Virus record (IMG/VR): IMGVR_UViG_2706794677_000002 | DNA from: a virus | Lineage: Duplodnaviria > Heunggongvirae > Uroviricota > Caudoviricetes | Length of the DNA stretch: 19,859 nt | Strand: one strand, 5' to 3' | In this document: one piece after another, positions 960 through 19,700 of the stretch | Numbering within the stretch: the first letter of the stretch is position 1 | How the letters are laid out: each line of letters starts with the position of its first letter | Position numbers and translations under genes: made by a program | Notes under the pieces: model-generated | The model's input: only the letters and a program-made list of their open reading frames with translations | Databases searched by the model: none | Told to the model about the DNA's origin: nothing

Positions 960-1158
960 GAGGTTGCCCTGTATTCAGTGTCGCTGATTTGTATTGTCTG
1001 AAGTTGTTTTTACGTTAAGTTGATGCAGATCAATTAATACGATACCTGCGTCATAATTGATTATTTGACGTGGTTTGATGGCGTAGATGCACGTTGTGAC
1101 ATGTAGATGATAATTATTATCATTTTGCGGGTCCTTTCCGGCGATCCGACAGGTTACG

Positions 1159-1170
1159 GGGCGGAAGGCG
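1159..1170 (+). other. cosN: cosN core corresponding to the 12-nt cohesive end; sequence GGGCGGAAGGCG where lambda has GGGCGGCGACCT
   Basis: Placed by alignment of the conserved flanks: ACAGGTTACG on the left, CGCGGGTTTTCG on the right. Confidence 0.65.
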
Positions 1171-1269
1171 CGCGGGTTTTCGCTATTTATGACAATTTTC
1201 CGGTTTAAGGCGTTTCCGTTCTTCTTCGCCGTAACCTAATGTTTTTATTTAAAACACCCCCTGAAAAGA

Positions 1270-1320
1270 AAGGAAACGACAGGTGCTGAAAACGGGCTTT
1301 TTGGCCTCTGTCGTTTCCTT
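1270..1320. repeat. inverted repeat AAGGAAACGACAG ... CTGTCGTTTCCTT, equivalent to the lambda cosB R2 and R1 gpNu1-binding sites
   Basis: Perfect 13-nt inverted repeat (1270-1282 and 1308-1320) directly visible; a third CGTTTCC copy (R3-like) lies at 1211-1217. Confidence 0.8.
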
Positions 1321-1347
1321 TCTCTGTTTTTGTCCGTGGAATGAACA

Positions 1348-1867
1348 ATGGAAGTCAACAAAAAGCAGCTGGCTGACATTTTCGGTGCGAGTATCCGTAC
1401 CATTCAGAACTGGCAGGAACAGGGAATGCCCGTTCTGCGAGGCGGTGGCAAGGGTAATGAGGTGCTTTATGACTCTGCCGCCGTTATAAGATGGTATGCC
1501 GAAAGGGATGCTGAAATTGAGAACGAAAAGCTGCGCCGGGAAGTTGAAGAACTGCGGCAGGCCAGCGAGACAGATCTCCAGCCAGGGACTATTGAGTACG
1601 AACGCCATCGACTTACGCGTGCGCAGGCCGACGCACAGGAGCTGAAAAATGCCAGAGACTCCGCTGAAGTGGTGGAAACCGCATTCTGTACTTTCGTGCT
1701 GTCGCGGATCGCAGGTGAAATTGCCAGTATTCTCGACGGGATCCCCCTGTCGGTGCAGCGGCGTTTTCCGGAACTGGAAAACCGACATGTTGATTTCCTG
1801 AAACGGGATATCATCAAAGCCATGAACAAAGCAGCCGCGCTGGATGAACTGATACCGGGGTTGCTGA

Positions 1868-1893
<26 letters not shown>
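1348..1893 (+). CDS. nu1: terminase small subunit gpNu1
   Basis: 181 aa, near-identical to lambda Nu1 as recalled (MEVNKKQLADIFGASIRTIQNWQEQGMPVLRGGGKGNEVLYDSAAV...); winged-helix DNA-binding N-terminus; first gene after cos. Confidence 0.97.
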
Positions 1894-5606
<3,713 letters not shown>

Positions 5607-14618: not shown

Positions 14619-15316
14619 TGCAGGATATCCGGCAGGAAACACTGAATGAATGCACCCGTGCGGAGCAGTCGGCCAGCGTGGTGCTCTGGGAAATCGATCT
14701 GACAGAGGTCGGTGGAGAACGTTATTTTTTCTGTAATGAGCAGAACGAAAAAGGTGAGCCGGTCACCTGGCAGGGGCGACAGTATCAGCCGTATCCCATT
14801 CAGGGGAGTGGTTTTGAACTGAATGGCAAAGGCACCAGTACGCGCCCCACGCTGATGGTTTCTAACCTGTACGGTATGGTCACCGGGATGGCGGAAGATC
14901 TACAGAGTCTGGTCGGCGGAACGGTGGTCCGGCGTAAGGTTTACGCCCGTTTTCTGGATGCGGTGAACTTCGTCAACGGAAACAGTGACGCCGATCCGGA
15001 GCAGGAGGTGATCAGCCGCTGGCGCATTGAGCAGTGCAGCGAACTGAGCGCGGTGAGTGCCTCTTTTGTACTGTCCACGCCGACGGAAACAGATGGCGCT
15101 GTTTTTCCGGGACGTATCATGCTGGCCAACACCTGCACCTGGACCTATCGCGGCGATGAGTGCGGTTATCACGGTCCGGCGGTCGCGGATGAATATGACC
15201 AGCCAACGTCCGANNNNNNNNNNNNNNNNNNNNNNNNNNNNNNNNNNNNNNNNNNNNNNNNNNNNNNNNNNNNNNNNNNNNNNNNNNNNNNNNNNNNNNN
15301 NNNNNNNNNNNNNNNN
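14618..15316 (+). CDS. L: tail tip protein gpL; the 3' end lies inside the N-masked gap, so the end coordinate is estimated from the 232-aa length of lambda L
   Basis: The first 198 aa are visible (MQDIRQETLNECTRAEQSASVVLWEIDLTEVGGERYFFCNEQNEKGEPVTWQGRQYQPY...CTWTYRGDECGYHGP...) and match lambda L; the Cys cluster of the C-terminal domain is partly masked. Confidence 0.85.
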
Positions 15317-15463
15317 NNNNNNNNNNNNNNNNNNNNNNNNNNNNNNNNNNNNNNNNNNNNNNNNNNNNNNNNNNNNNNNNNNNNNNNNNNNNNNNNNNNN
15401 NNNNNNNNNNNNNNNNNNNNNNNNNNNNNNNNNNNNNNNNNNNNNNNNNNNNNNNNNNNNNNN
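15214..15463. other. masked or unknown sequence (run of N) covering the L 3' end, the L-K intergenic region and possibly the K 5' end
   Basis: 250 consecutive N. Confidence 1.
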
Positions 15464-16710: not shown

Positions 16711-19700
16711 ATGGGTAAAGGCAGCAGTAAGGGGCATACCCCGCGCGAAGCGAAGGACAACCTGAAGTCCACGCAGCTGCTGAGTGTGATCGATGCCATC
16801 AGTGAAGGGCCGGTTGAAGGTCCGGTGGATGGATTAAAAAGCGTGCTGCTGAACAGTACGCCGGTGCTGGACAATGAGGGGAATACCAACATCTCCGGCG
16901 TCACGGTGGTGTTCCGGGCAGGTGAGCAGGAGCAGTCACCGCCGGAGGGGTTTGAATCCTCCGGCTCCGAGACGGTGCTGGGTACGGAAGTGAAATATGA
17001 CACGCCGATCACCCGGACCATCACGTCGGCAAACATTGACCGACTGCGTTTTACCTTCGGTGTACAGGCACTGGTGGAAACCACCTCAAAGGGAGACAGG
17101 AATCCGTCTGAAGTTCGCCTGCTGGTTCAGATACAGCGTAACGGTGGCTGGGTGACGGAAAAAGACATCACCATTAAGGGCAAAACCACCTCGCAGTATC
17201 TGGCCTCGGTGGTGGTGGATAACCTGCCGCCGCGCCCGTTTAATATCCGGATGCGCAGAATGACGCCGGACAGCACCACAGACCAGCTGCAGAACAAAAC
17301 GCTCTGGTCGTCATACACCGAAATCATCGATGTGAAACAGTGCTACCCGAACACGGCACTGGTCGGCGTACAGGTGGATTCGGAGCAGTTCGGCAGCCAG
17401 CAGGTGAGCCGTAATTATCATCTTCGCGGGCGCATTCTGCAGGTGCCGTCGAACTATAATCCGCAGACGCGGCAATACAGCGGTATCTGGGACGGAACGT
17501 TAAAACCGGCATACAGCAACAACATGGCCTGGTGTCTGTGGGATATGCTGACCCATCCGCGCTATGGCATGGGGAAACGTCTTGGTGCGGCAGATGTGGA
17601 TAAATGGGCGCTGTATGTCATCGGCCAGTACTGTGACCAGTCGGTGCCGGACGGCTTTGGCAGCACGGAGCCGCGCATCACCTGTAATGCCTGGCTGACC
17701 ACACAGCGCAAGGCGTGGGATGTGCTCAGTGATTTCTGCTCGGCGATGCGCTGTATGCCGGTATGGAACGGGCAGACGCTGACGTTCGTGCAGGACCGAC
17801 AGTCGGATAAGGTGTGGGCCTATAACCGCAGTAATGTGGTGATGCCGGATGATGGCGCGCCGTTCCGCTACAGTTTCAGCGCCCTGAAAGACCGCCATAA
17901 TGCCGTTGAGGTGAACTGGATTGACCCGGATAACGGCTGGGAGACGGCGACAGAGCTTGTGGAGGATACGCAGGCCATTGTCCGTTACGGTCGTAACGTC
18001 ACGAAGATGGATGCCTTTGGCTGTACCAGCCGGGGGCAGGCACACCGCGCCGGGCTGTGGCTGATTAAAACGGAACTGCTGGAGACGCAGACCGTGGATT
18101 TCAGCGTGGGTGCTGAAGGGCTTCGTCATGTACCGGGCGATGTCATTGAAATCTGCGATGATGACTATGCCGGTATCCGCACCGGCGGGCGCGTGCTGGC
18201 GGTGAACAGCCAGACCCGGACGCTGACGCTCGACCGTGAAATCACGCTGCCATCCTCCGGCACCACGCTGATAAGCCTGGTTGACGGGCAGGGGAATCCG
18301 GTCAGCGTGGAGGTCCAGTCCGTCACCGACGGCGTGAAGGTAAAAGTGAGCCGTGTTCCTGACGGTGTTGCTGAATACAGCGTGTGGGGGCTGAAGCTGC
18401 CGACGCTGCACCAGCGATTGTTCCGCTGCGNNNNNNNNNNNNNNNNNNNNNNNNNNNNNNNNNNNNNNNNNNNNNNNNNNNNNNNNNNNNNNNNNNNNNN
18501 NNNNNNNNNNNNNNNNNNNNNNNNNNNNNNNNNNNNNNNNNNNNNNNNNNNNNNNNNNNNNNNNNNNNNNNNNNNNNNNNNNNNNNNNNNNNNNNNNNNN
18601 NNNNNNNNNNNNNNNNNNNNNNNNNNNNNNNNNNNNNNNNNNNNNNNNNNNNNNNNNNNNNNNNNNNNNNGCTGACAGTCCGGGCAGTAAATGCGTGGGG
18701 GCAGCAGGGCGATCCGGCGTCGGTATCGTTCCGGATTGCCGCACCGGCAGCGCTGTCGCGGATTGAGCTGACGCCGGGCTATTTTCAGATAACCGCCACG
18801 CCGCATCTTGCGGTTTATGATCCGACGGTACAGTTTGAGTTCTGGTTCTCGGAAAAGCGGATTGCGGATATCAGGCAGGTTGAAACCACAGCACGCTATC
18901 TTGGCACGGCGCTGTACTGGATAGCCGCCAGTATCAATATCAAACCGGGCCATGATTATTACTTTTATATCCGCAGTGTGAACACCGTTGGCAAATCGGC
19001 ATTCGTGGAGGCTGTTGGTCAGCCGAGTGATGATGCATCCGGTTATCTGGATTTTTTCAAAGGCGAGATAGGGAAAACCCATCTGGCTCAGGAGCTGTGG
19101 ACGCAGATTGATAACGGTCAGCTTGCGCCTGACCTGGCTGAAATCAGGACGTCCATTACGGATGTCAGCAATGAAATCACGCAGACCGTCAATAAGAAAC
19201 TGGAAGACCAGAGTGCGGCAATTCAGCAGATACAGAAGGTTCAGGTTGATACAAATAATAACCTGAACAGCATGTGGGCTGTGAAGCTGCAGCAGATGCA
19301 GGACGGACGCCTTTATATCGCGGGTATTGGTGCCGGTATTGAGAACACCCCTGACGGCATGCAGAGTCAGGTGCTGCTGGCGGCGGACAGGATTGCGATG
19401 GTTAATCCTGCGAATGGCAACACAAAACCGATGTTTGTTGGTCAGGGCGATCAGATATTCATGAACGACGTGTTCCTGAAACGCCTGACGGCCCCCACCA
19501 TTACCAGCGGTGGAAATCCATCGGCATTTTCCCTGACTCCGGACGGAAAGCTGACCGCTAAAAATGCGGATATCAGTGGCAGTGTGAATGCGAACGCCGG
19601 GACGCTCAACAATGTCACGGTAAATGAAAACTGTACGATTAAGGGCATGCTGGAGGCGACTCAGGTCAGAGGTGACTTCGTTAAAGCTGTATCCAAATCA

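Follow-up and report, generated by a model that had tools for sequence, protein, structure and literature searches.

The 19,859-nt stretch of viral DNA analysed here (IMG/VR record IMGVR_UViG_2706794677_000002, assigned to the Caudoviricetes; hereafter the window) carries, in an otherwise ordinary cos site of the lambda type, a nicking segment, cosN, that reads GGGCGGAAGGCG at positions 1159-1170, the single occurrence of this 12-mer within the window. We regard this 12-mer as a natural and probably functional cosN allele that would be cut by a lambda-type terminase. It is a further case of a kind of variation already described, and nothing points to a new specificity or a new mechanism. Among the alleles compared on a lambda-type terminase background, that of the window has the most divergent right half, with five changes.

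We aligned window positions 1080-1360 with lambda (PV340536), phage 2H10, PhiR70_1 and the left end of phage Perceval. Where the window has GGGCGGAAGGCG, lambda has GGGCGGCGACCT, which is also the 12-mer of phage 2H10 and of the left end of Perceval. Window and lambda are separated by five substitutions - C to A at bp 7, G to A at bp 8, A to G at bp 9, C to G at bp 10 and T to G at bp 12 - with bp 1-6 and bp 11 the same in both, and all five aligned sequences agree in the flanks, CAGGTTACG to the left and CGCGGGTTTTCGCTATTTATGA to the right. A preliminary description of this DNA had claimed that five of the last six cosN bases differ from lambda while the flanks and first six bases are lambda-like, and with this the alignment agrees; its identification of the 12-nt segment as the cohesive end also holds, as does the statement that this end is not complementary to that of lambda, 7 of the 12 positions matching.

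The clustering of these changes is pronounced. Window and lambda differ at 17 of the 275 other aligned positions (6.2%), and at this background five or more changes within six positions have a probability of P = 5e-6; against the nearest canonical relative (locus L062), which is about 0.5% divergent and whose closest other differences to cosN lie at -32 and +35, the same cluster has P = 3e-11. The five mismatches to GGGCGGCGACCT place the window outside the canonical lambda cohesive-end group (lambda, 21 and 434), and the pattern is that of a natural right-half variant, in which only bp 7-12 differ from lambda and no change falls in the left half, the flanking CG pairs or cosQ. The elements of the site and the adjoining genes, with window coordinates, are as follows.

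1129..1135, plus strand: cosQ, GGGTCCT, the packaging-termination subsite, at -30 to -24 from the top-strand nick and identical in lambda
1157..1172, plus strand: cosN, 16 bp, CG-GGGCGGAAGGCG-CG, the 12-bp cohesive segment with CG outside each nick
1159..1164, plus strand: cosN bp 1-6, GGGCGG, invariant in the alignment
1165..1170, plus strand: cosN bp 7-12, the variant half, an allele that recurs in contigs, genomes, plasmids and phages
1208..1223, plus strand: cosB R3, AGGCGTTTCCGTTCTT, cos bp 50-65, identical to lambda
1232..1244, minus strand: putative I1 (IHF site of cosB), TAACCTAATGTTT, cos bp 74-86, assigned by position and from the annotation of phage 21
1267..1282, minus strand: cosB R2, AGAAAGGAAACGACAG, the exact 16-bp reverse complement of R1, identical to lambda
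1308..1323, plus strand: cosB R1, CTGTCGTTTCCTTTCT, identical to lambda and in the same position as R1 of phage 21, bp 150-166
1348..1893, plus strand: Nu1 (TerS), 181 aa, lambda-type, Pfam Phage_Nu1 PF07471 over the full profile, E = 2e-101
1868..3825, plus strand: gpA (TerL), with an apparent split from a run of N at 3152-3431

Judged by its sequence, the window holds a complete lambda-like cos, comprising the cosN core with its CG pairs, cosQ, a complex cosB and the Nu1 and TerL genes. The definition of cosN and the conservation of its flanking CG pairs are taken from published work (PMC9026076, PMC4669245), as are the position of R3 at cos bp 50-65 in lambda and the 16-bp sequence that R2 and R1 have in common (PMC9026076); the cosQ heptamer and its offset match the curated cosQ of phage 21 (OL657228.1). 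The distance from cosN to R3, the site at which TerS would anchor TerL for the bottom-strand nick, is as in lambda. Within this spacer, window position 1193 (cos bp 35) shows a change from A to C (TATGACAATTTT), with spacer length the same, which is found in 7 of 19 variant carriers sampled versus 2 of 117 canonical sequences. At the putative I1 the window (TAACCTAATGTTT) and lambda (TAACTTAATGTTT) are one base apart, but the same change occurs in Perceval, a canonical-cosN phage, and is therefore unrelated to the cosN allele. We also considered a templated origin of the variant half from cosB, given that AAGGCG is found in R3 too (1208-1213), but this is a mere 6-mer with mismatching neighbouring bases and was rejected.

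As displayed in the window, gpA resembles a pseudogene, with a 541-aa ORF, a frame change and a 72-aa ORF. We reject this as a masking artefact, in that 280 N stand in for 248 real bases. Locus L009, which matches the window at 100% identity wherever the latter is unmasked, encodes an intact gpA of 641 aa, as do all 12 carriers with enough sequence, and an intact gpA gene of 1,926 nt is annotated in further carrier genomes and in PhiR46_1. The masked runs of the window (3152-3431, 15214-15463 and 18431-18670) all lie clear of cos.

The allele recurs widely. An exact 31-mer spanning the variant site is present in 14 IMG/VR contigs. Among complete E. coli genomes, a 38-mer query, built such that every 28-base seed holds the whole 12-mer, finds the variant site (ACG, the 12-mer and 13 nt) in 169 places in 158 of 5,426 genomes, 153 of these places being chromosomal and 16 on plasmids. 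The corresponding query for the canonical site matches 8,115 places in 4,281 complete genomes; the variant accounts for about 2% of lambda-type cos sites in this set. PLSDB holds 23 plasmid records with the variant, from E. coli, E. fergusonii, E. albertii and Shigella sonnei, and two deposited phages, PhiR46_1 and YDC107_1, carry it as well. When 120 IMG/VR contigs were sampled on the conserved flanks without regard to allele, 115 proved canonical, two had GGGCGTCAGGCG, one GGGCGGCGACCG and one GGGCGACGACCT, with one contig untallied, and a scan of all IMG/VR for a base other than T at bp 12 gave 18 contigs, 14 of which have the variant allele. Species-representative genomes, scanned for conserved flanks with a base other than T at bp 12, gave no sign of the variant in other species, all six matches being chance ones in unrelated GC-rich MAGs.

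The variant is enriched on N15-like phage-plasmids. Plasmid replicons account for 16 of the 169 variant places versus 20 of the 8,115 canonical ones (odds ratio 42, Fisher P = 2e-18, these places being phylogenetically non-independent), and the variant replicons, for example NZ_CP055252.1 and NZ_CP101200.1, include phage-plasmids of about 46 kb. PhiR46_1 (PV340565.1) exemplifies these plasmids: it is a linear, N15-like phage-plasmid that combines telL/telR, ParAB and a primase with a full lambda-like set of head and tail genes. It is deposited as a phage with ECOR13 as host, and by that GenBank host field it is putatively plaque-forming. YDC107_1 is classified as a Ravinvirus. It is a reasonable guess that the N15-like phage-plasmid lineage is the main reservoir of the allele. 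Our literature search found no paper describing PhiR46_1 or the PhiR phages. A dedicated survey of this kind of variation (Vahanian et al. 2017, Virology 509:140) lies outside the searchable full text, in which GGGCGGAAGGCG, its complement and GGGCGTCAGGCG retrieved only unrelated plant and Streptomyces papers.

How has one 12-mer come to be so distributed? Over the 2.6 kb of cosB-Nu1-A, carriers form at least five lineages that are interleaved with canonical sequences, some having canonical nearest neighbours, and mean pairwise differences over the same 2.6 kb are 60 between variant sequences, 66 between variant and canonical sequences and 45 among canonical sequences. The regions upstream of cos likewise vary among carriers, being iss/bor-type, KilA-N/DUF1398, methyltransferase or IS-disrupted, and lysis and moron modules differ. 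The interleaved lineages and varied upstream regions indicate that the allele has been reshuffled among many backgrounds, while the presence of five differences within 6 bp in backgrounds that are about 0.5% divergent rules out recent independent point mutations. We take the 12-mer to be an old allele that has moved among lambda-type prophages, 21-type prophages and N15-like phage-plasmids by recombination. This could have happened through ordinary recombination in the conserved 60-bp block of cosQ, cosN and spacer, or alternatively through a cohesive-end heteroduplex of the kind described by Feiss et al. (2015, PMC4669245), amounting to the swap of a nick-site cassette; as the cosN flanks are invariant from -31 to +34 relative to L062, the two routes are indistinguishable. 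Alleles a single step from the canonical one also occur on lambda-type flanks, though rarely: GGGCGGAGACCT (C7A) in the deposited phage PhiR70_1 (L003), and GGGCGGCGACCG (T12G) in L067. A third such single-step allele on lambda-type flanks, GGGCGACGACCT (G6A) in L095, alters the supposedly constrained left half.

The published genetics of cosN bear directly on the function of such an allele. Lambda-like phages often depart from lambda at bp 7-12 (at bp 9 and 12 in N15 and phiD326; at bp 8, 9 and 11 in Gifsy-1); conservation extends over cosQ, the flanking CG pairs and the left half of cosN, the last being under selection (Feiss et al. 2015, PMC4669245). Cleavage of cos was not measurably affected by mutations in the right half; lambda TerL gave equal yields with lambda cosN and with N15 cosN, in which bp 9 and 12 are changed, and the asymmetry between the halves reflects the anchoring of TerL by TerS at cosB (PMC4669245). 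In addition, the endonuclease centres of TerL are not especially sequence-specific (Hawkins et al. 2022, PMC9026076). Of the engineered mutants, C11G is without phenotype and the symmetric G2C cuts yield about 10-fold (PMC4669245), C11G being a single engineered change as opposed to the natural five-base replacement of the window allele, which retains C11. The altered nicking efficiency proposed in the preliminary description runs contrary to these genetics, where right-half changes do not measurably alter cleavage and N15 cosN gives full yield (PMC4669245). The published yield test covers the two changes of N15; the Gifsy-1 allele has three and that of the window five, beyond the number covered by the published tests consulted.

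Set beside known cos systems, the allele is closest in context to lambda, whose cosN GGGCGGCGACCT is common to 21, 434, 2H10, Perceval and most E. coli lambda-like prophages. Like lambda, the window has cosQ, CG pairs at both nicks, bp 1-6, bp 11, the R3 distance and lambda-type cosB, Nu1 and gpA; unlike lambda, it differs at bp 7, 8, 9, 10 and 12, and the ends are non-complementary. Three other natural alleles, among them those of N15, mEp237 and Gifsy-1, which we re-read directly from sequence, are also changed in the right half only. The cosN of N15, mEp237 and phiD326 (GGGCGGCGTCCG) shares T12G with the window allele, but has two changes (bp 9 and 12) versus five, and N15 has a simple single-R cosB and a TerL about 65% identical to that of lambda, whereas carriers of the window allele have lambda-type cosB, Nu1 and gpA. 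Gifsy-1 (GGGCGGCAGCGT) has 8A and 9G as in the window allele, and mEp213/LLS (GGGCGGCGCGCT; PMC12315714) has 10G; both show other combinations of changes, together with divergent terminases and head genes, where those of the window are nearly identical to lambda.

The window allele also resembles a satellite-type cosN sequence, GGGCGTCAGGCG, present in IMG/VR loci L108, L132 and L142. Here bp 8-12 read AGGCG as in the window allele, and the region from cosQ to cosN and the first 22 bp after cosN are also the same; bp 6-7 are TC versus GA, however, and cosB is unrelated. This cos (at about position 5456 of the oriented locus in L108) adjoins the gene of a 175-aa protein of the Phage_Nu1 Pfam family with a divergent N-terminus, for which a PDB search for RppC or Nu1 returned no match. 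Upstream there is an AlpA-like ORF, and the element borders on a truncated lambda E capsid gene, of which the 3' part is left. It has the look of a satellite of the PICI type embedded in a helper, comparable to 11capE (bioRxiv 10.1101/2022.07.18.500453).

If the allele is functional, as we believe, lambda-type Nu1 and gpA, indistinguishable from those of canonical phages, would bind cosB through Nu1, and gpA would cut at the two edges of the 12-bp segment, the top strand being nicked 5' of bp 1 and the bottom one after bp 12. TerS at R3 would position the bottom-strand nick of TerL irrespective of local sequence, and a second TerL would nick the top strand at the conserved left half. With the bottom nick set by R3-bound TerS, the sequence of bp 7-12 would matter little and would be free to vary. 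Each virion end would then have a 12-nt 5' overhang, the left one reading 5'-GGGCGGAAGGCG and the right one 5'-CGCCTTCCGCCC. These are complementary to each other, but five of their 12 positions would not pair with a lambda end. GC content is 10/12 in both alleles, and nearest-neighbour dG37 is -17.8 kcal/mol for the variant versus -18.2 kcal/mol for lambda; the annealing stability of variant ends is predicted to be essentially that of lambda ends. The nick positions, cleavage efficiency and viability in carriers we infer.

An alternative is that this cosN is decayed and non-functional, representing damage in prophages that no longer package and that has spread vertically or by hitch-hiking. 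Most carriers are indeed known as prophage sequence only, and at least two, E24377A and Z1323CEC0019, are truncated, defective remnants in which terS or gpA directly precedes tail or lom fragments. Decay would nevertheless have had to change five of six adjacent bases while leaving intact cosQ, the CG pairs, bp 1-6, R3, R2 and R1, Nu1 and a gpA of 641 aa. It would also have to account for at least five recombinant backgrounds with differing neighbour modules, and for the presence of the allele on phage-plasmids of about 46 kb in four species. Moreover, the altered positions are exactly those reported to be unconstrained (PMC4669245). We consider decay unlikely.

The geometry of cutting might instead be altered, with the bottom nick shifted so that the overhang differs in length or position from the 12 nt of lambda. 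Two features of the variant could be read in this way. First, the substitutions produce an alternating GCGCGCG tract that spans the site of the bottom-strand nick (window 1168-1174). Second, rotational symmetry is changed relative to lambda, with pairs 3/10 and 6/7 lost and pair 4/9 gained, such that a symmetry partner is lost at bp 10 and gained at bp 9. Placement of the bottom nick has, however, been attributed to R3-cosN spacing and TerS anchoring rather than to local sequence (PMC9026076, PMC4669245), and both this spacing and the CG outside the nick are retained in the window. A shifted nick is on these grounds decidedly improbable.

If carriers instead formed a separate class of cosN specificity, with a gpA or Nu1 adapted to the variant, the terminase proteins should bear its mark. 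Some associations do exist. The strongest in gpA is N9D/S21A, found in 7 of 12 variant versus 2 of 33 canonical carriers, and in Nu1 a haplotype of 11 substitutions spanning residues 71-148 (Q71L, Q78H, I82L, Y84F, D95T, R103K, D104E, G123R, A126S, E144D and V148I) is common to 5 of 15 variant carriers (L008, L010, L016, L138 and L139) and to none of 65 canonical ones; the haplotype is absent from the other variant carriers and so is not needed for the allele. Counting further in favour of such adaptation, Arens et al. are said to have described, in 1999, mutations in lambda gpA that extend endonuclease specificity to cosN mutants. Yet none of the 37 variable columns in gpA separates the 12 variant from the 33 canonical carriers, and no residue of Nu1 is diagnostic among 15 variant and 65 canonical carriers: no position in either protein is both fixed in carriers and missing from canonical phages, and several carriers have a gpA or Nu1 closest to that of canonical relatives. 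The co-variation with gpA proposed in the preliminary description is thus not borne out in gpA, nor is there any in Nu1. In addition, the 12-mer also occurs beside a 21-type cosB, with the terminase genes deleted in the one example examined, and lambda TerL shows no specificity for lambda versus N15 cosN (PMC4669245). A co-evolved endonuclease seems to us very improbable.

The last alternative, a sequencing, assembly or contig-junction artefact at a prophage cos, which had also been raised at the outset, can be dismissed with near certainty: cos is a natural linear end at which assemblers occasionally mis-join, and there are masked stretches elsewhere in the window, but the same site is found in 14 IMG/VR contigs, 158 genomes, 23 plasmids and 2 phages, that is, in more than 150 independent assemblies from various laboratories and platforms, including closed genomes, and within continuous sequence.

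With a natural, functional allele as the preferred reading, does it mark a distinct packaging specificity, as was initially suggested? A separate packaging-specificity class is distinguished by its R sequences and by the DNA-binding domain of TerS. In the window R3, R2, R1 and Nu1 are all of lambda type, and as specificity resides in cosB and TerS, a new packaging specificity is unsupported. The same 12-mer also occurs with 21-type cosB and TerS. In the E. coli E24377A prophage remnant (L151; NC_009801.1, 1280101-1286128), variant cosN is followed by phage-21-type R3, R2 and R1 and by a chimeric TerS with a 21-like N-terminal DNA-binding region and a lambda-like central part; head and tail genes are deleted here, the TerS gene having a lom fragment and then stfR directly after it. 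About half of the 158 variant genomes match from -3 onward only, which is consistent with divergent, 21-type-like left flanks. Canonical cosN is likewise found beside 21-type cosB, in phage 21 and PhiR57_1. Since variant and canonical cosN each occur with 21-type cosB, the cosN allele is uncoupled from cosB/TerS specificity, and the distinct cos specificity type of the preliminary description finds no support here in the usual sense of packaging specificity.

What might the allele mean for the phages that carry it? A two-base mismatch between cohesive ends costs about 4-fold in viable yield and can persist through replication, with both alleles recovered in progeny (PMC4669245). It is conceivable, though we think it doubtful, that the two 12-mers act as cohesive-end compatibility types among near-identical lambda-like phages. 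If this were true, a chromosome packaged from a hybrid concatemer, in which one cos is canonical and the next is variant, would have ends mismatched at 5 of 12 positions and would probably not circularise. Prophages and phage-plasmids resident in one cell would then be partly hindered from recombining productively or being packaged together. Rare survivors may pass on the 12-mer as a nick-bounded cassette by the heteroduplex route demonstrated with mismatched lambda and N15 ends; transmission as a cassette would explain why the same 12-mer is found within lambda-type, 21-type and phage-plasmid flanks. Were compatibility types real, the enrichment on N15-like phage-plasmids would reflect lineage isolation and not drift.

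In practical terms, tools and oligonucleotides that assume GGGCGGCGACCT miss about 2% of E. coli lambda-type cos sites, and about four in ten of those on phage-plasmids. This affects cos-site finders, oligonucleotides for end-labelling or tethering, and the logic of cosmid or in vitro packaging, and annotators should not mistake the variant site for an error of assembly. The value of the allele lies mostly in annotation and methods, and for lambda-like phages it provides an extreme natural illustration of the functional asymmetry of cosN.
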